Assembly: GCA_951804945.1 (NCBI GenBank)
Contig: OX638156.1
Span: 39,556,001-39,620,000 of the forward strand
Direction of reading: 5' to 3'
Length of the DNA stretch: 64,000 nucleotides
Source: Podarcis cretensis
Taxonomy: Eukaryota
How positions within the stretch are numbered: position 1 is the stretch's first letter; every line of letters begins with the position of its first letter. The notes below the pieces were generated by a model. It was not told the DNA's origin. It searched no databases and worked only from the letters and a program-made list of their open reading frames with translations. Made by a program: the position numbers and the translations under genes. Shown here piece after piece: positions 4,809 through 43,006 of the stretch.

Positions 4809-5739
4809 TCACATACACAGTCCCTCTTGACCTATTGTTCTGTCTCCTGGGATAATGTGGCATCAAGCCAGCTGAGGTGAGAAAAGGCTCACCCATGTGT
4901 CTCTATGGCAACCTCTTTAGGCTTGTGAATCACAGGGCTTAACCGGCCAGCCAAAGACATTAACAAGGAACTGGACTGGCCGATTTCCTCTTATAGATTC
5001 TAGCCCATATACACAGGATCGCAGCTTTGGAAGGAACCCAGGGTATCATGCAGACTGATCCTCCAAGCTCATATTGATACACTTCCTGATGCTAGCAGGA
5101 TGCTCAGATTGTTATGTAAGCGAGCCAGGGTAGTGGTAGAGAGAACCTCGTGTCTTGGCAAATTTCATGTCTGAGTTTGCTTCTTTTCTTCTTCCCTTCC
5201 CATCCCCTTTTCCTTTCATGTCAGGTCTTTTTAGATTGCAAGCCTGAGGGCAAGGACTATGTAATCTTTTATTTATTTGTAAGCTTCTCTAACTGTATGC
5301 TCTGAATGAATGAGTAAATAAACACCAAGTTACTTTGCCCAATCTGCAATTCCTCACCACAGAAAGAGCAATACTATACATTTCACTTCTTAAACTGTCT
5401 AGCTTTCCCCCTTACATGGGACCAAGAAAGCAGCTGCAATTAGATTAAATAAGTTAATCAACTAAAGTGATAGTTGATTAACTGATGAAGCTGATGTTAA
5501 ATGGTGAGGGAATGTTTTAATTAGTGTGTGGGTACAAATTAAAAGTACCCGTTTATTTTCTGAGATTTTAATCCATCTGAATTACTGTAGCAAGAAATAA
5601 AGAAGGAGGAATTATAAACGGCTATTTCCAACTTGTATTTATTAAATTGCAAGTTACCTTTTGCATACATCCATATTTCAAACCAGGCAACTTTATTTAG
5701 GGTTTTCTTCTTGTTTTGTAAGATGCAGAGCCATTTCAA

Positions 5740-5740
<1 letters not shown>

Positions 5741-5785
<45 letters not shown>
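5741..5785. repeat. (GATT)n microsatellite
   Basis: Direct reading. Confidence 0.95.
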
Positions 5786-5989
5786 CAATGACTTGATTGC
5801 ACAGCAGATGATTAATCAGTTAAAGTTATTTCATTCTGCTCACTTTCCACATGGATGTTCTCTTTGCACAACAGAGCCCTGGCCAACAATGCCTAGTTGT
5901 TGTTTTTATCTAGTGTTTCTTGAACACTTGTTCCCGACTGAGGCAGCTATGACCTTAGCTAGTGAAAACCAGCTTCAAATCCTTACACA

Positions 5990-6915
5990 CAAGGACACAA
6001 GAAGAACCTGCTGGATCAGACCAATGGTCAATCTAGTCCAGGGGTCGGCAAACTACGGTCCCCGGACCAGATCAGTCCCACCTGGGTCCTAAATCGGACC
6101 CACACCGCGAAGCCGGAACCCACCGCGATTCCGAGTCTCCCGGCAATGGTGACGGAAGGAAGAGGCCGAGCGACGGCAGCTCTGCCAATCAAACGTAGCA
6201 CCTGGTTTACCTCAGCGACGTTTGATTGGCAGACATGCCCGCACCATGCTGAGGTAAATCAGGCATGGCATTTGATTGGCAGAGCCGCCACCACTTGGCC
6301 TCTTCCTCCCTCTGCCGCCACCGCTGCCGCCACCCTGGTGCTCCTGTGGGCCCGAGAGTGGAGTGGACGAGCTCACTCTGCCTACCCACTTCACAAGAAG
6401 CAGCAGCAGCAGTGGTGGCGGTGGTGGTGGCAGCAGCAGCCCCTGGGAAGGTAAGTGCAGTGCCTTCTTTCTCTAGGCGGGGAGTAAGCCCATTTTGTGC
6501 CACCACCACCAGCGAAAGAGGCAGGCGGCAAACTGAGAAGGCTGCAGGGGCTGGGGGTGGCTATGTGCAGTGTGCATAGGAATTGAGAGAGAGAGAGAGT
6601 GTCCAGCCCTCCACAAGGTCTGAGGGACAGTGGAACGGCCTCCTGTGAAAAAAGTTTGCTGACCCCTGATCTAGTCCAACATCCTGATCTCACAGTGGCC
6701 AACTAGATGCCTGTGGAAAACCCACAAGCAGGACCCAAGCACATGAGCTCTCTCCCTTCCTGCAATTTCCAACAACGGGTGCTCAAAAGCATTAATGTCT
6801 CTGGGCATGGAGGCAGAGGATAGCCATTGTGGCTAATAGGCATTGATAACTTTATCCATGAATTTCTCCAGTCCCTTTTAAGTCATCCATGCTTGTGGCC
6901 ATCACTTCCTCCTGT
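5990..6915 (-). mobile_element. CR1 LINE 3' end, split by the hAT insertion at 6039-6668
   Basis: AAGAAGAACCTGCTGGATCAG…ATCTAGTC|CAACATCCTGATCTCACAGTGGCCAA… is colinear with the uninterrupted copy at 11846-12222. Confidence 0.75.
6039..6668. mobile_element. Non-autonomous hAT (Charlie-like) transposon
   Basis: TIRs CAGGGGTCGGCAAACT/AGTTTGCTGACCCCTG; perfect 8-bp TSD ATCTAGTC (6031-6038, 6669-6676). Confidence 0.9.
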
Positions 6916-7659
6916 TTAAGAGATGGAGTGAGGATTAAATCTGTGGATTAAAATACACCTCCTATCCCATGTGTGTAAGAGAAATATGAAAAGTAAGAGG
7001 GCTGTGAAGCCTTTTTAGCAGGGTAAAACACTTCTATGTTTTGCAGCTTACTAAAGCTTAGGAATAAGGCAATTACACCTCTTTATCCCATTTATTTGTG
7101 CTCTCCTGACCTGCCCCTCTTCACCTCAATTGCAGAGAATGAACCACATGTTTTTGTAAGATAAACAACAACAACAAAGGTTTATCTGCATTTCAATGCA
7201 GGCAGCAAATACAATACAGGTAAGAAAACCTCTCAGGTACAAAATACGAAAGTACTGAATTTGTTGTGTGTATCTGGAGCCCCAAGACACTCACCTGATT
7301 AGCTTGGAAGCATGGTGGAGAGACAATCTCCTCAGCAGCAGGAAGAAGTATAAAAGATTATATGCTTTGTTGCAGAATTCTCCTTTGTTACAGAATTCCT
7401 GCCCAGAGGAGGAAGGGAAAGTGACCACACAGAGGATCTTCTCCAGGAAGCTTAAGAACTCTCCATGTAGTAGCCATGCATAATTTCATAAACTTCTGTC
7501 ATTTCACCTCTTTTGGGGTTTTTCTCTAAACTGGAAGGTCCTTTATGCTGTACCCTTTCTGCACAGGGGAATTGCTCTGCTCCCTTGATCAGCTGACCTT
7601 GGCTGATCTTGCGAAGCTCATAACTTCTTGGCCTGACCTACCGCCCTTGAGGATAAGAT

Positions 7660-7960
7660 TGTAGCTCTGGGATAGAGCATCTCCTATGCATGTAGAAGGT
7701 GCCAGAATTGATCCCTGACATCTTCAGGAGGGACTGGGAAAGCCCCCCTCACCTGCTGCCAGTCAGTGCAGACAATACTGTGTCAGATGGCACCAGGGTC
7801 TGACTCTGTGTTCAGTAGCTTGCTCTGGTTATACTGGGGCAGAGCTTTGCCTTCAGAAAGTCCCAGGTTCCTTCCCTGGCATCTTCAGCTAAGAATGCCT
7901 GGCACCCTGAAGAGAGGCTGCCAGTCAGTGTAAGCAATACTGAACTAGATGGATTGGTTT
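7660..7960 (+). mobile_element. Two head-to-tail tRNA-derived squamate SINE copies (Squam3-like)
   Basis: GTAGCTC…AGAGCATCT…GCATGTAGAAGGT tRNA-like head, and GCTGCCAGTCAGTG(C/T)A..CAATACTG body present twice. Confidence 0.65.
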
Positions 7961-8071
7961 ATGTCACAGGGTGATAGAAGAGGAATGGCACTTTCAGGGA
8001 TTTGCGGGACCTGCTACTTCTTTCCTGTGGATAATTTTTCTTCTTCCTGTCCCCTGAAACTAAAACATGGA

Positions 8072-8120
<49 letters not shown>
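8072..8120. repeat. (TTG)n microsatellite
   Basis: Direct reading. Confidence 0.95.
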
Positions 8121-8122
<2 letters not shown>

Positions 8123-8297
8123 ATAAAAGTGTTTGCTCTTTGCTAAGCTTCAGCTGCAAATTCCAACAAAACCCCTATGCCAAGTAGCTGGACAGAGCCA
8201 GGCTGAGAGATTGGGTAGCCCTTCCTTTGGTATCCTAGCAACTTGCCTCTGCCTGGAGGCAAGAGGTAGTTTTATCCCAGATGTCCACCACCTTCCC

Positions 8298-8342
<45 letters not shown>
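8298..8342. repeat. (AC)n microsatellite
   Basis: Direct reading. Confidence 0.95.
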
Positions 8343-8345
<3 letters not shown>

Positions 8346-9008
8346 GGGGGGAATGGACCAGACTGTGGATCCACCATGAAGAAACGGCATTTTAAAACGT
8401 TTGCCAATTGAGAGAAATCACAGGGAGAAATCTTATTCCCTCCCGAAGTATAACAACTTCTGGCATAGGAGATCGACTCTAAAACGCTGTTTCTAACCTC
8501 ATGCAAGCACATTTGATCTGTATCCATTCATGGCGATGCCTTAAGAAAGAAATGCTGGAAGAAGCAGAGAAAGAAATCCTCTCCACCCGTGCCCTGCTTC
8601 TGGGTTGTAGGTCAACTCTGCTGTGCAGTCAGATGGGATCAGCTCCTCTTGCCGCCGTCTCCACCAGAAGAAGGAGCCCACATGGCCTTGGCCAATAAAA
8701 GGAAATGATTAAGATCACTGAACCCCTGTCAGAATGCTTTGCGCTCTGCAGCACAGAAGCAGAAAGACAAGAGGCAGACCTGCTGCTTCAAAGGGGAAGG
8801 AAAGGAGGCAGGGGCTGGCATTAGGCTAGAGTCATGGGATTGTAGAGTTGGAGGGGACACAAAGGGTATGCTAGCCCAACCTCTGCAATGCAAAAATCAC
8901 AACTAAAGAATCCCCCTGGACAGTTTCCAGCACAGTAAACTGACCATTGCTCCTAGTCAGAGGAGCACTACACAAAAACTGCTCCTTACTTACTCGGAAG
9001 TAAACTCC

Positions 9009-10415: not shown

Positions 10416-11227
10416 TCATAGAATTGGAGAGTTGGAAGGGACCCTGAGGATCATCTAATCCAACCTCCTAGAAAACAGGAATATGCAGTAGTCCCATACA
10501 AGGACTGAACCTACAACCTTGACATTATCAGCACCATGCTCTAACTAAGCTTGTTATTGTTTAGTGGTTTAGTCATGTCCGACTCTTCGTGACCCCATGG
10601 ACCAGAGCACGCCAGGCACTCCTGTCTTCCACTGCCTCCCGCAGTTAGGCCAAACTCATGCTGGTAGCTTCAAGAACACTGTCCAACCATCTCATCCTCT
10701 GTCATCCCCTACTCTTTGTGCCCTCCATCTTTCCCAACATCAGGGTCTTTTCCAGGGAGTCTTCTCTTCTCATGAGGTGGCCAAAGTATTGGAGCCTCAG
10801 CTTCACGATCTGTCCTTCCAGTGAGCATTCAGGGCTGATTTCCTTCAGAATGGATAGGTTTGATCTTCTTGCAGTCCATGGGACTCTCAAGAGTCTCCTC
10901 CAGCATCATAATTCAAAAGCATCAATTCTTCGGCGATCAGCCTTCTTTATGGTCCAGCTCTCACTTCCATACATCACTACTGGGAAAACCATAACTTTAG
11001 CTATACGGACCTTTGTTGGCAAGGTGATGTCTCTGCTTTTTAAGACGCTGTCTAGGTTTGTCATTGCTTTTCTCCCAAGAAGCAGGCGTCTTTTAATTTT
11101 GTGACTGTTGTCACCATCTGCAGTGATCATGGAGCCCAAGAAAGTAAAATCTCTCACTGTCTCCATTTCTTCTATTTGCCAGGAGGTGATGGGACCAGTG
11201 GCCATGCTCTAACTAAGCTATCCAGGC
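10416..11227 (-). mobile_element. tRNA-Ile-derived SINE with CR1-type tail, interrupted by Bov-B
   Basis: Segments 10416-10551 and 11202-11227 join into the reverse complement of the SINE at 24976-25128. Confidence 0.75.
10552..11201 (-). mobile_element. RTE Bov-B LINE, 5'-truncated, 3' end of RT ORF plus tail
   Basis: Peptides MATGPITSWQI…FTFLGSMITADGD…IKRRLLLGRKAMTNLDS…ESWTIKKADRRRIDAFEL and RVPWTARRSNLSILKEISPECSLEG are typical Bov-B; (CAA)-like tail; perfect 18-bp TSD CCATGCTCTAACTAAGCT (10534-10551, 11202-11219). Confidence 0.95.
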
Positions 11228-27810: not shown

Positions 27811-28368
27811 AGGCTGAGACCTCTTTCAGGGACCTGCCTCTCCAGTAACATCCACTTGCATCCAAAACACGCATGAGCAAAAGAAAACAAACCAGCAATG
27901 TGCTCATGTGGTGGAAGATGGGAGTGAAGGAGAGAGAGAAACATTGCAGCTGGCAACTGGCCCAGAAGCAGGGAAATCAAGCTGGCTGTGTCTGCATCTG
28001 GAATGAGGCTCACCTAAGGCCACTTTGGGGGCCTCCTCTTGCGTTTGCTCAAACTTCCCAGAAGATCCTCTGGAAGGAAGCAAGAAGAGGCTGTTGGCAG
28101 CCTGCTCATTTGCTTGCGCTCTGAGTTCCTTGGCTGCATTTAGACTCTGCTTTTTGCCCTTTTGTTTTCAGTGTCCCTAAATGCTTCACTTCAGAACATA
28201 CAGTGGCTAAGAAGCTCCCCTTTCATGCTGATCGGGTAGCTCTAGGATGCTAGAGGCACAGACTCTGAGGCAGAAATAGCAAGGGGACTTCAACACCCCA
28301 TGACTCTGGGCCATGACACCGCTGGTTGTGAGTGCAGTAAAGCCACTTCTGACCTCGGGAGGAGGTGG

Positions 28369-29094
28369 TGTTGCGGGCTTCACGCCCCCAACATGCGTGC
28401 GGGGGCTGGCTCCCAGCCCCCGTGCAATCTAGGGAATCCTCGGGCCACGTCATCCCCTGGCCAGCCAATCGGCTGGCTCAGGGGGTGTGGTGTGCCTCAT
28501 TTAAGGCAAGCGCGGCCAGGGATCTCCCTCTTTGGCCGCTCAGCTGCTCTGGTTTTCCCACCCACCCTCCCTTCAAGGTTCCCCTTCTGACCTTGCTATG
28601 GACCTCAGTTGGTCGCCGTTAAGGGGCCTGGTAGGATTTTTTTCCACTTGGCAAACTGGCACCAGCCATTTGGTTTTTTGCCTACTTCATAGGTTTTTTG
28701 CCTACCTTGGTGGTTAGGCATTGGTATGAGTATTGTTATGTAGATGGGGGGAGGAGCGCCATCACCTCCCCCAGATATTGAAGGGTAGTCCAGTAAAGGA
28801 TTCCGGGGGGCGTGGCCTTGTCCGAAGCCTATGGAGGTCAAGGCCTAAAGCACAGCCCCGAGTGGTGACCCTGGGGGAGTCCCTAGTTGATGTGCATCAG
28901 CAGGGCTCCCCCTGCTGATGTTAACCCTTCCCGGTCTTCAAGCAAACAGGCTGAAGCCGGATAGTCAGATAGGACCAATGCCTAAGCCAATACTGCTCAT
29001 CACCTGTAACCAATAAAGTTGTAGCCCATTAACCTAAAATAACGGTGTCATGTGTCTATTCCTACTGGTGGGAGGCGGGAACTCGACACGCAAC
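28369..29094 (+). mobile_element. Putative Ngaro-type (DIRS/YR retrotransposon) solo A+B terminal repeat unit
   Basis: 28708-29094 (B) is the reverse complement of 40962-41366; 28369-28707 (A) has CCAAT (28465) and a TATA-like CATTTAAGG (28498); AATAAA at 29012; ends TGTTGCG…CGCAAC; no TSD. Confidence 0.6.
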
Positions 29095-39587: not shown

Positions 39588-39870
39588 TGGTTAAACTCAT
39601 ATTAGTAGCTTCGAGAACACTGTCCAACCATCTCGTCCTCTGTCGTCCCCTTCTCTTTGTGCCCTCCATCTTTCCCAACATCAGGGTCTTTTCCAGGGAC
39701 TCTTCTCTTCTCATGAGGTGGCCAAAGTATTGGAGCCTCAGCTTCACGATCTGTCCTTCCAGTGAGCACTCAGGGCTGATTTCCTTCAGAATGGAGAGGT
39801 TTGATCTTCTTGCAGTCCATGGGACTCTCAAGAGTCTCCTCCAGCACCATAATTCAAAAGCATCAATTCT
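39588..39870 (-). mobile_element. Bov-B fragment without 3' tail
   Basis: Highly similar to 10650-10929; peptide RVPWTARRSNLSILKEISPECSLEG…RRGRQRTRWLDSV. Confidence 0.92.
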
Positions 39871-40962
39871 AGGTTCGGGTTTTTTGAGAAACCTTAGAAG
39901 GTAGGTTTCCTTTATGCTTTTTTGCTGGTGAAAGCTGTGAACATCAAATGATTCACATGAGCCTGTTTCCTGTCACTTGCTGGATCTGCAACTGTGGCTC
40001 AATTTTTGCGCCTTGGCACACCAGGCCAAGAAGGCTGCATCCTTGACCTACCTGTGAGTCAACATGGATATAGCCTTGCAACTGCATTTACAGATTTTGG
40101 GAGAAAGTGGGATGCTTTGAGTTTCTCAACTGCATTGGTATTTTTGTTTGTTTATTGGAATAAATATTCTTATTTGGCCATTTCTCAGGTGGGTCGGTGG
40201 GTCGGTGAGGAGAAAAGCTACCCAGGCATCCAAATTGGGGTCCCAGGTTTACCTAGGTAGAGGTTTCAGCTCCAGTGGAGTAGAAGAAATAAAATATCCC
40301 CCAGGCATTTGCACCGGCCTACAGTTCTGGCTCAAGAGTTACACTTAACATAAAAGAACTTTGGTGTATACGCCTGCAAAATAGTTGGCTCTGGGCATTT
40401 TTCTGCTGAATGCTGACCATGCATGCATAAAATCTCATTTTACATAACAAGTCAGAGAAGAATTGTGGGGGGAGGGGAGAAAGAGGGGGGGTGCTTTATA
40501 CATAATATAGCAGTGCATTATAAGCTGAATGCCATGTAATAAAAATTTGGCAACATCATTTTCCATTATATGTAAACTTCACATATGAAGTGTCAACATA
40601 ATTCAGCAGATAGGCCAGCTCTCCAACACTTGGTATGACACTGGTGAGTCACTAACATGTGAGCTCTGCGTCATCGGAAGTTCTGCTGTTTGGAAACAAA
40701 AGAAGAGCCCAAGAGCAGTATAAAACCAAAGGCCTATAGCCAACCAAACTGAGCACAATAGCATCCTCCCACTTCTGATATCCAGCAACTGGTATTCAGA
40801 GTTTTGATGCATAATACACAGCCATTGTGACTACTAGCTCCTGATAGCCTCATTCTCCATGAATTTGCCTAGTCTCCTTTAAAGAAGCTACCTTATACAG
40901 AGTCAAAGCATTAGTCCATTTAGATCAGTACTGTCTGCAGTGACTTGCAGTGGCTTTCCAAG

Positions 40963-41701
40963 TTGCGTGGCGAGTTCCTGCCTCCCCCCAGTGTAAATAA
41001 AGACACATGACACCATTGAATAGCGTTAATGGGCTAGAATTGGCCACAACTTTATTGGTTACAGGTAAGAGCGGTATTGGCTTAGGCATTGGTCCTATCC
41101 CGCTAACCGGCTTCAGCCTGATTGCTTGAAGACCGGGAAGGGTTAACACCAGCAGGGGGAGCCCTGCTGATGCACCTCAACTAGGTACTCCCCTGGGGTC
41201 ACCACTTGGGGGGGCGCTTTAGGCCCTGGCCTCCATAAGCTTCGGACAAGGCCACGCCCCCCCGGAATCCTTTAAAGGACTACCCTTCAATATTTGGGGG
41301 AGGTGATGGCGCTCCTCCCCCCCAACACATCTACATAACAATACCCCTACCAATGCCTAACCGCCACTCGAGCGAAGCTCACCGCCAATACCCTCAAACC
41401 TGCAACCAATCCCTAATCCCCGCAAATACGTCGTTCAGCCAAACATCGTTTCCCTCATTGGAAAGATGCACGCCATCCTCACGGTAGAGGGCCTCCTTAT
41501 TGAACCAGATGTCGGGGTGTTCAATGACACGAGCCCTCAGTGCTGCCACTCTACGAACCACTGCACATTCCAGGCTCTTCCTGGATTTATTTATTGTGAT
41601 GGGGGAGCAGCAGTCCTTCCAAGTCTTTCAAGCAAAGATGACCAAATTAAGACTAAGTCTGGAAAAGAGGAATGCAAGACCTCTAAATCATAGAAAATAT
41701 T
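40963..41701 (-). mobile_element. 5'-truncated putative Ngaro-type element: SGNH ORF end plus B repeat
   Basis: Flanked by a perfect 32-bp duplication CTGTCTGCAGTGACTTGCAGTGGCTTTCCAAG (40931-40962, 41702-41733); B repeat shared with 28708-29094. Confidence 0.7.
41394..41698 (-). pseudogene. C-terminal ~100 codons of an SGNH/GDSL hydrolase-like ORF, one frameshift
   Basis: Manual translation IFYDLEVLHSSFPDLVLIWSSLLER/fs/TWKDCCSPITINKSRKSLECAVVRRVAALRARVIEHPDIWFNKEALYREDGVHLSNEGNDVWLNDVFAGIRDWLQV*; DGVH is the block-V DxxH catalytic motif. Confidence 0.75.
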
Positions 41702-42874
41702 CTGTCTGCAGTGACTTGCAGTGGCTTTCCAAGGTTTCAGGCAGGAGGTCTCTCCCAGCCCTATGCCTGGAGATTGAAGCAGGGACCTTCTGGGTGCAAA
41801 ACAGATGCTCTACCACTGAGCTACAGTCCTTCACTATGGTCTGTCAACTAAGCTATGCTCTGCCTCCATGGCTGGACGCAGCAGTGCTTCTGAGTGGCAG
41901 CTGCTGCAAACCACAGGAGGGGAGAGTGCTGCTATTCTACTCGGGTCACACTTTCTGAAATAATATGCCAACCCAAAAGCAGCAGTCCTTTGAAATTCGC
42001 TCGCCAAATTTTGCCGTGGAGTTCTCTAGCCAAGTGGTATGGGAAATACGTATGAAGCTGCATATATCGGTGAAAATAGCGTACGAAAACGCATGACCAA
42101 ATAGGAAGTTGCTTAGCAAAAAGCGTGTATATTTGGCAAAATTGCACGGAGAGGTGTGTATATTAGGAGAGATTCACACTAAAATGCTGCTGAATTTTCA
42201 TGAGCACTTTTTTTGGAATGTGGATCGCAAACTGGTATGGAAAGGTAGAGAAATGAATTGAAGAGTGGGAAAAGGGCACACTGAGATGAACCAAAATTGA
42301 CAGATTTGCCCTTCCCTAATGGCCTCATCCAAACCTGATACCACCAGGTAATGAACTTACCGTTTTCCCTGCAGTAGGCATCCTTCCTTCCCCACTTAGT
42401 GCTAAATCTGCCGCTGGAAGCTGCTGTCTGAGCAAGTCCTAAGAAGGAGGGATTACAGTTTGATCCAACAGACATTTTACTCTTTTTTTCACCCTAACAA
42501 ACGCCCTTAGCATAGCAGGAGCCCACAGTGCTCCCCATCAAACTGAAATAAGGTATCGTACTGTATCAGTAACAATTCAGATGTTGTTTTATTGATTATC
42601 TTTGCACAACAAAGCTGGTAAAAAAAAACCTACTTAGAATATTAAAAGAAAAACCTATATAACTTTAATAATTAGAGACACCCGCTGCTGAACAACGTTT
42701 AGCTTTTTAAAAGTGGCAGCATATCACTTGGATGTTGCATTTTACAAGACAAAGACAAAGGGGGCCCCTCTCCTACCCAAACTAAGCATTGCTGCCGTCA
42801 ACAACCCAACAAAAGCGAAAAAGAAAGCTACCTAAAATGGAAATGAAAACATAATGTATGGAAATATGCTCTCA

Positions 42875-43006
42875 NNNNNNNNNNNNNNNNNNNNNNNNNN
42901 NNNNNNNNNNNNNNNNNNNNNNNNNNNNNNNNNNNNNNNNNNNNNNNNNNNNNNNNNNNNNNNNNNNNNNNNNNNNNNNNNNNNNNNNNNNNNNNNNNNN
43001 NNNNNN
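42875..43006. other. Assembly gap (132 N)
   Basis: Run of N. Confidence 1.

Follow-up and report, generated by a model that had tools for sequence, protein, structure and literature searches.

To our knowledge the integration of DIRS and Ngaro retrotransposons has gone largely untested, and the standing model is of a double-stranded circle that leaves no long duplication. Amongst described elements, Xenopus DIRS-53_XT and DIRS-54_XT (PMC9210276) resemble the lizard element considered here in having split repeats arranged as A1-ORFs-B1-A2-B2, overlapping gag, RT/RH and tyrosine recombinase (YR) frames, a fourth ORF of SGNH type and no methyltransferase match; the lizard element differs in the spacer of around 160 bp between A2 and B2 and in a B repeat of around 390-404 bp. 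As the main text of that paper contains none of the terms 'TSD', 'target site' or 'truncat', it does not describe the scar reported below. DIRS-1 of Dictyostelium is likewise a YR retrotransposon, with a cDNA that is single-stranded, mostly linear and can be incomplete; however, it has inverted repeats and an ICR rather than split direct repeats, and in the model outlined for it the integrating form is a double-stranded circle, from which no long duplication is expected (PMC7192593).

The same scar is known from one-ended integration of HIV-1 and ASLV, in which one end is precise and made by the enzyme, whilst the other is often truncated and joined by the host, with duplications of hundreds of bases. 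Those events involve a DDE integrase and were forced in culture by drugs or mutant ends (PMC5041404), whereas the lizard case involves a YR, is natural and fixed in the germ line, and has a shared two-base core. The integron integrase on attC is a YR that acts on a folded single strand, exchanging one strand and leaving the host to finish (PMC4792948), and the lizard B|A junction also folds; however, the integron is bacterial, with a circular cassette and a replicative resolution without duplication, and single-strand use by a Ngaro YR would be an analogy only. Solo AB repeats of Cafeteria Ngaro (PMC8547959) and the SIRE of VIPER (PMC6681497) are like a unit at 28339-29093 of the window, by which is meant the whole 64,000 nt stretch of Podarcis cretensis DNA that was analysed. 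Unlike these solo units, the insert that is the subject of this report lacks A, keeps coding sequence and is flanked by a long duplication. No report of a long-duplication scar at a Ngaro element was found in the literature searched, which included PMC3783388, PMC13465315, PMC8547959 and PMC6681497. The element itself is of an already known kind; what is added here is a count at the level of the class, its control, a test of target bias and a limit on the A arm.

The window insert and its Ngaro relatives

The insert interrupts a tRNA-type SINE, and the relevant features, in window coordinates, are the following.

40931..40962, no strand assigned: host duplication copy after the precise B end, part of the SINE
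41702..41733, no strand assigned: host duplication copy at the truncated 5' end
40963..41366, minus strand: Ngaro B repeat in the B1 position, directly after the SGNH ORF, 404 bp, ending ...CGCAA
40963..40964, minus strand: AA at the terminus, common to complete copies and their target, and the putative YR crossover core
41051..41056, minus strand: AATAAA inside B, 88 bases before the end
41394..41627, minus strand: SGNH ORF remnant, the C-terminal 77 codons with DGVH (block V), then a stop
41624..41701, minus strand: SGNH ORF remnant, 26 codons in the other frame, with a frameshift near 41624
41734..41735, minus strand: target dinucleotide at the core position, AC rather than AA (GT on the plus strand, like most SINE relatives)
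40884..41832, minus strand: interrupted tRNA-type SINE, tail side 40884-40962 and head side 41702-41832
28339..29093, plus strand: solo A-spacer-B unit (the 'other B copy'), AA at both ends, without a long duplication

The two 32-bp copies form an exact direct repeat with 739 bp in between, as an earlier note made from the sequence had stated, and the computed chance expectation for such a pair is around 5e-12. They represent a single SINE stretch, the left and right flanks mapping to the same positions in 9/11 loci of SINE relatives. The SINE around the insert has, on the minus strand, words at 41823-41807 and around 41780-41772 that resemble A and B boxes, which we take to mark a tRNA-like promoter; ARAGORN called no tRNA gene there. 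The loss of one base from the duplication was considered and dropped, the SINE relatives having the same two bases as the target.

In contigs from eight runs under eight organism labels, the SGNH piece is joined to the duplication copy at 41702, and those of the X14 and X10 runs also extend more than 31 bases across the 3' joint, with X14 continuing across the 41702 copy into the far flank. A single difference, at 41704 inside the second duplication copy, was present in two runs. The insert and its duplication are real, and common to the organisms of the eight runs. No empty site was found among these runs; the listed skips had sides of less than 30 bases and resembled other SINE copies, and an X10 row running from 40958 to 41735 was rejected, as its sequence is not that of the empty site.

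The insert is the 3' end of a Ngaro retrotransposon, composed of a frameshifted SGNH piece and a B repeat. Read on the minus strand, its codons, 26 (41701-41624) and 77 (41627-41397), come from a single ORF split between two frames; the two peptides from which the earlier note had proposed an SGNH-type ORF of around 100 codons are both present, but in different frames, the frameshift having gone unmentioned. The B repeat is 86% identical to 28708-29094 and both copies end at the same base, in keeping with the terminal repeat of about 400 bp and shared terminus that had been recognised there. The truncation, the lack of poly(A) and the end well beyond AATAAA were also correctly read: the 5' break lies at 41701, with around 1 base of microhomology, no poly(A) was found at the 3' end, and B continues for 88 bases past the AATAAA.

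Elsewhere in the window are a 278-bp repeat pair, 96% identical, at 10652-10929 and 39593-39870, and a run of 132 N bases at 42875-43006, around 1.1 kb from the insert and not part of it. The first nine bases of the A repeat, AAAGCCACT, occur in the duplicated target on the minus strand at 40949-40957 and 41720-41728; lying five bases from the B end and off the crossover, AAAGCCACT may be present by chance or may aid YR binding.

The genome holds thousands of candidate relatives, with 3522 at first look, 40 of which were scored. The order A1-gag-RT/RH-YR-SGNH-B1-A2-spacer-B2 was present in 9/20 stretches around uninterrupted SGNH ORFs, one with B2 cut short. These nine have split direct repeats, with A of around 220-233 bp, B of around 384-404 bp and pairs that are 97.7-100% identical; the window piece represents B only. 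Older copies, nearer to the window insert, have the same ORF order. Eight ORFs of relatives were scanned against Pfam, giving RVT_1 at E=1e-12 and 5e-13, above the cut-off, and Phage_integrase and Phage_int_SAM_4 at E=0.001-0.025, below it, with no match to rve (DDE integrase), APE or methyltransferase in the eight. The Ngaro identity and SGNH cargo suggested by the earlier note are thereby upheld by the layout, the RT and YR and the SGNH ORF, the full-length relatives having RT/RH and YR and, in the eight ORFs scanned, no match to an APE or a DDE integrase.

The fourth ORF of the relatives follows YR and extends over 194-231 codons (longer from stop to stop in a few copies). Uninterrupted relatives, to which the window pieces align at 62% and 46%, carry GHS, G, GEND and DGVH (GRS/GKND in one row), which we take to be SGNH blocks I, II, III and V; only DGVH is kept in the window piece. 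Lipase_GDSL_2 matched the relatives' fourth ORF at E=4e-6 and 8e-4, below the Pfam cut-off, and a predicted structure of the SGNH ORF (pLDDT 78) matched GDSL lipases with a TM of around 0.64 and E around 5e-7. A PDB sequence search with one SGNH ORF returned no matches, and a search with the SGNH alignment returned three weak ones (E 0.045-0.22). By motif, sub-cut-off Pfam match and fold, the fourth ORF of the relatives is a predicted SGNH/GDSL hydrolase. The window copy is truncated and frameshifted and its pieces alone were given no family by Pfam; the profile search that the earlier note had proposed hence draws a blank on the fragment itself, the SGNH assignment coming from the uninterrupted relatives.

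Complete copies start with AA|AGCC and end with CGC|AA, and B1 and A2 likewise have this AA in common where they meet internally. Only this dinucleotide is shared with the target; the TG...CA ends and 4-6 bp duplication of LTR elements are absent. All eight complete copies displayed have AA at both ends without a long duplication, L115 lying in a tandem array. Since the family has many copies ending at B1, whether or not internal sequence has been lost, the end point of the window insert is the normal right end of the family.

A number of other arrangements were seen amongst the relatives. Three copies (L111, L114 and L117) have uninterrupted ORFs from A1 to B1 without A2-spacer-B2. Inside an old copy, L047, 1878 bp of the RH-YR part are repeated in tandem at 100% identity (oriented 4890-8646), which may be a recent duplication or an assembly error. 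A second YR family has many near-identical copies on many contigs, with one in-frame TGA in the matched N-terminal stretch.

Long duplications at copies without an outer A repeat

A set of 236 distinct outer B ends, enriched for SGNH-bearing copies, comprised 62 without an outer A repeat, 156 with A and 18 that were unresolved. Of the A-less ends, 18/62 had a duplication anchored at the B end, against 1/156 of the A-bearing and 0/18 of the unresolved ends (Fisher p=3e-10); the sole A-bearing case, L115 in its tandem array (satellite), was kept in the count. The absence of a long duplication at complete and A-bearing copies (155/156) accords with the earlier statement that normal YR integration does not make one. 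Duplications in the 18 A-less cases are 12-330 bp long, with identities of 90.5-100% across the set. A nineteenth, of around 360 bp, is found in 4/5 paralogues of a multiplied block, the chosen representative having scored negative. This block, L061-L065 (G000:C8:13.8-14.4 Mb), is a segmental array in which the one truncated copy with its duplication has been multiplied five times, with a spacing of 110-180 kb. Three candidates were dropped: L323, with a 78% match that is offset and far away, and L238 and L261, with matches of 8 bp.

In a pattern sample drawn without selection, made up of 86 ends out of the first 100 of 368 matches, a duplication occurred at 3/86 ends, equivalent to 3/11 of the A-less ends there. 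The remaining 44/62 A-less copies of the larger set have no duplication, some of them being misclassed through an A lying outside the examined stretch or missed, as in L301. The upstream duplication copy lies at most 9 bases from the 5' break of the element in 15/18 cases and 47-2171 bases from its edge in the other 3/18. Of seven 5' joints inspected, five have 0-3 bases of microhomology and two have short fillers. Duplication identity is weakly correlated with element age (rho 0.55, p=0.015, n=19), the correlation not being significant for the 12 of at least 70 bp (rho 0.16). L356 is very young, its duplication being 99.6% identical and its element 99.2% identical to the nearest copy.

One scar, L105 (716-803, 7713-7801), is a mirror image: the A1 start is intact and the element is cut 60 bases into A2, after which 28 bases of the upstream flank, including AA, are repeated. 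No convincing mirror scar was found among 75 starts selected by A; in 28 of these, often the starts of long elements, B was not in view; a 17-bp match in L384 was rejected, since it lies far past an intact B end. Remnants of A only, around 94-200 bp long and with no B in view, were seen in L388, L392, L399 and L402 from base 1501; were the donor linear, they would be its opposite arm.

The joints, the donor and rival explanations

At the 3' joint, the duplication begins exactly at the terminal AA in 15/19 cases, and AA stands at the core in 17/19. Complete, solo and one-unit copies all meet the host at the B terminus through the shared AA. Normal left junctions (n=144) have A or G at -2 in 125 and A at -1 in 6; the 15 AA-core duplication cases have a purine at -2 in 15/15 and A at -1 in none, and their mean target score was not reached in 100,000 random draws of AA. 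Across all duplication cases, a purine is at -2 in 18/19 (p=1.6e-4). As the duplications start at AA and the flank shows the target bias of the family, the 3' joint of the class was most likely made by the element's own YR. The window site is one of the two cases without AA, having AC at the core and A at -1; a non-AA core is also found at 11/101 normal left junctions, hence the site is compatible with the class but not its best example, and the case for the window copy leans on the class.

Further evidence concerns the donor. In 40 A-deletion-B copies, hand-picked from 74 rows, the A arm extends no further than base 222, where A ends (median 197; 31 at 160 or beyond), whilst the other break is scattered; no A arm in these copies extends into the spacer. 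The 40 exclude copies that are near-complete, carry insertions or belong to diverged subfamilies, together with two small deletions; amongst the omitted rows are exceptions: L319 lacks 68 bp within B, and L371, L389 and L391 retain pieces from beyond A1. Under a model of uniform deletion, the chance of such a stop in 11 short copies is around 1e-4. Because the A arms stop by base 222 and the other break scatters, we infer that the donor is a linear cDNA with one end fixed at the end of A and the other variable, where reverse transcription stopped. The B|A junction folds to a hairpin with AA in the stem, CGCAA pairing with TTGCG in plus-strand folds of 7/7 subfamily copies (CACAA/TTGTG in one), at z scores of -1.1 to -4.5 on the plus strand and -0.3 to -3.4 on the minus strand; six pairs have two-sided changes in 10 related copies, a control that is inflated by their relatedness.

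An explanation has to accommodate the anatomy of the scar, the existence of the class and its association with missing A, the start at AA and the bias in targets. These observations are probably explained by one-ended joining of an incomplete linear cDNA by the YR, finished by host repair. Reverse transcription would yield a linear cDNA of the form [variable 5' break ... B]-AA-[A, at most around 222 nt], the donor being either single-stranded, with one strand exchanged at the folded junction, or double-stranded. Within the B|A junction, the AA core would be where the YR then exchanges with a target of the preferred type, as the junctions suggest, and the A arm would be clipped at AA, where homology stops. 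The host end would copy the intact target past AA for n bases, 32 in the window copy, before being joined to the cDNA break through microhomology of 0-3 bases; the product would be X-AA-Y(n)-[break...B]-AA-Y. Were the A arm instead kept and joined to the break, the common A-deletion-B copies would arise, and pairing of repeats may produce solo and one-unit copies.

A different history, which we consider unlikely but deserving of attention, is that of a normal YR insertion followed by a break in the element whose repair used the empty homologue or sister as template, with synthesis running n bases past the site before it aborted and was end-joined into the remnant. The same sequence, AA start and target bias would result, and mirror cases such as L105 are predicted; nor do the counts, 3/86 at B ends and no convincing case in 75 A starts, suffice to show an asymmetry. 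However, later repair does not account for the A arms stopping at or before base 222, given the small chance of this under uniform deletion. In the unselected sample, two duplications out of three come from the B1 side and not from solo units, although 72/86 ends there carry A, and the duplication in very young copies such as L356 also argues against a later event. The earlier note had favoured capture of element cDNA at a pre-existing staggered break without the YR. This draws on the microhomology at the 5' joint, on the AC core of the window copy and on the existence of linear cDNA in DIRS-1 as described in PMC7192593; yet random breaks would not give an AA start in 15/19 or the family's purine bias at -2, and precise cutting at the B end, case after case, is not expected of cDNA continuing into A. 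Capture independent of the YR is an improbable account, and for the class it is largely refuted, if less firmly for the window copy alone. Half of the idea stands, as host repair probably made the 5' joint, but the 3' joint is most likely the work of the YR; the note's view of a piece that 'did not integrate by its own machinery' is not supported, given a B terminus that is the ordinary family end, the AA starts and the target bias.

The note's other suggestion, mobilisation in trans by a LINE through target-primed reverse transcription, would explain the 5' truncation, fixed 3' end and target duplication, which resemble LINE products. Bov-B would be an example, its CAA tail resembling the B end; it ends in (CAA)n, its duplications start with A, and its target signature, Tn-TA, has a T run around 10 bases upstream and a T before the A (PMC13295347). 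This signature is absent here, with T at -1 in 3/19 and TTT at -14..-7 in 4/19, no more often than at normal YR sites (18/75 and 13/75). There is moreover no tail, the end lies 88 bases past the AATAAA, duplications reach around 360 bp, and the mirror case L105 misfits priming from a fixed 3' end; a LINE origin is thus highly implausible. An assembly artefact or ordinary tandem duplication might be suspected from the 100% identity of the two window duplication copies, given a B repeat 8% from its nearest relative, but can for practical purposes be dismissed: both joints are present in independent runs, two of which have the one difference inside the second copy; the SINE is continuous across the site, and no second element lies beside the first duplication copy. 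The possibility of such an artefact, raised with the original observation, is therefore answered by the runs.

Implications for Ngaro integration

One-ended joining by the YR may be part of something wider. It is conceivable, though we hold it only tentatively and with some doubt, that Ngaro elements routinely integrate linear single-stranded cDNA, the YR exchanging one strand at the folded B|A junction in the manner of an integron and leaving a flap for the host to finish. One pathway would then give rise to the complete, solo, one-unit, A-deletion-B and long-duplication copies alike, and the double-stranded circle would not be the main route. The scar class predicts linear donors ending at the end of A, and the loss of such scars where the YR is dead.

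A 5' truncation accompanied by a target duplication is not proof of a LINE-type insertion. The Ngaro elements studied here themselves duplicate tens to hundreds of host bases at around 3 in 86 insertions, and scars with one end made by the recombinase and the other by repair constitute a countable fossil record of an integration intermediate.
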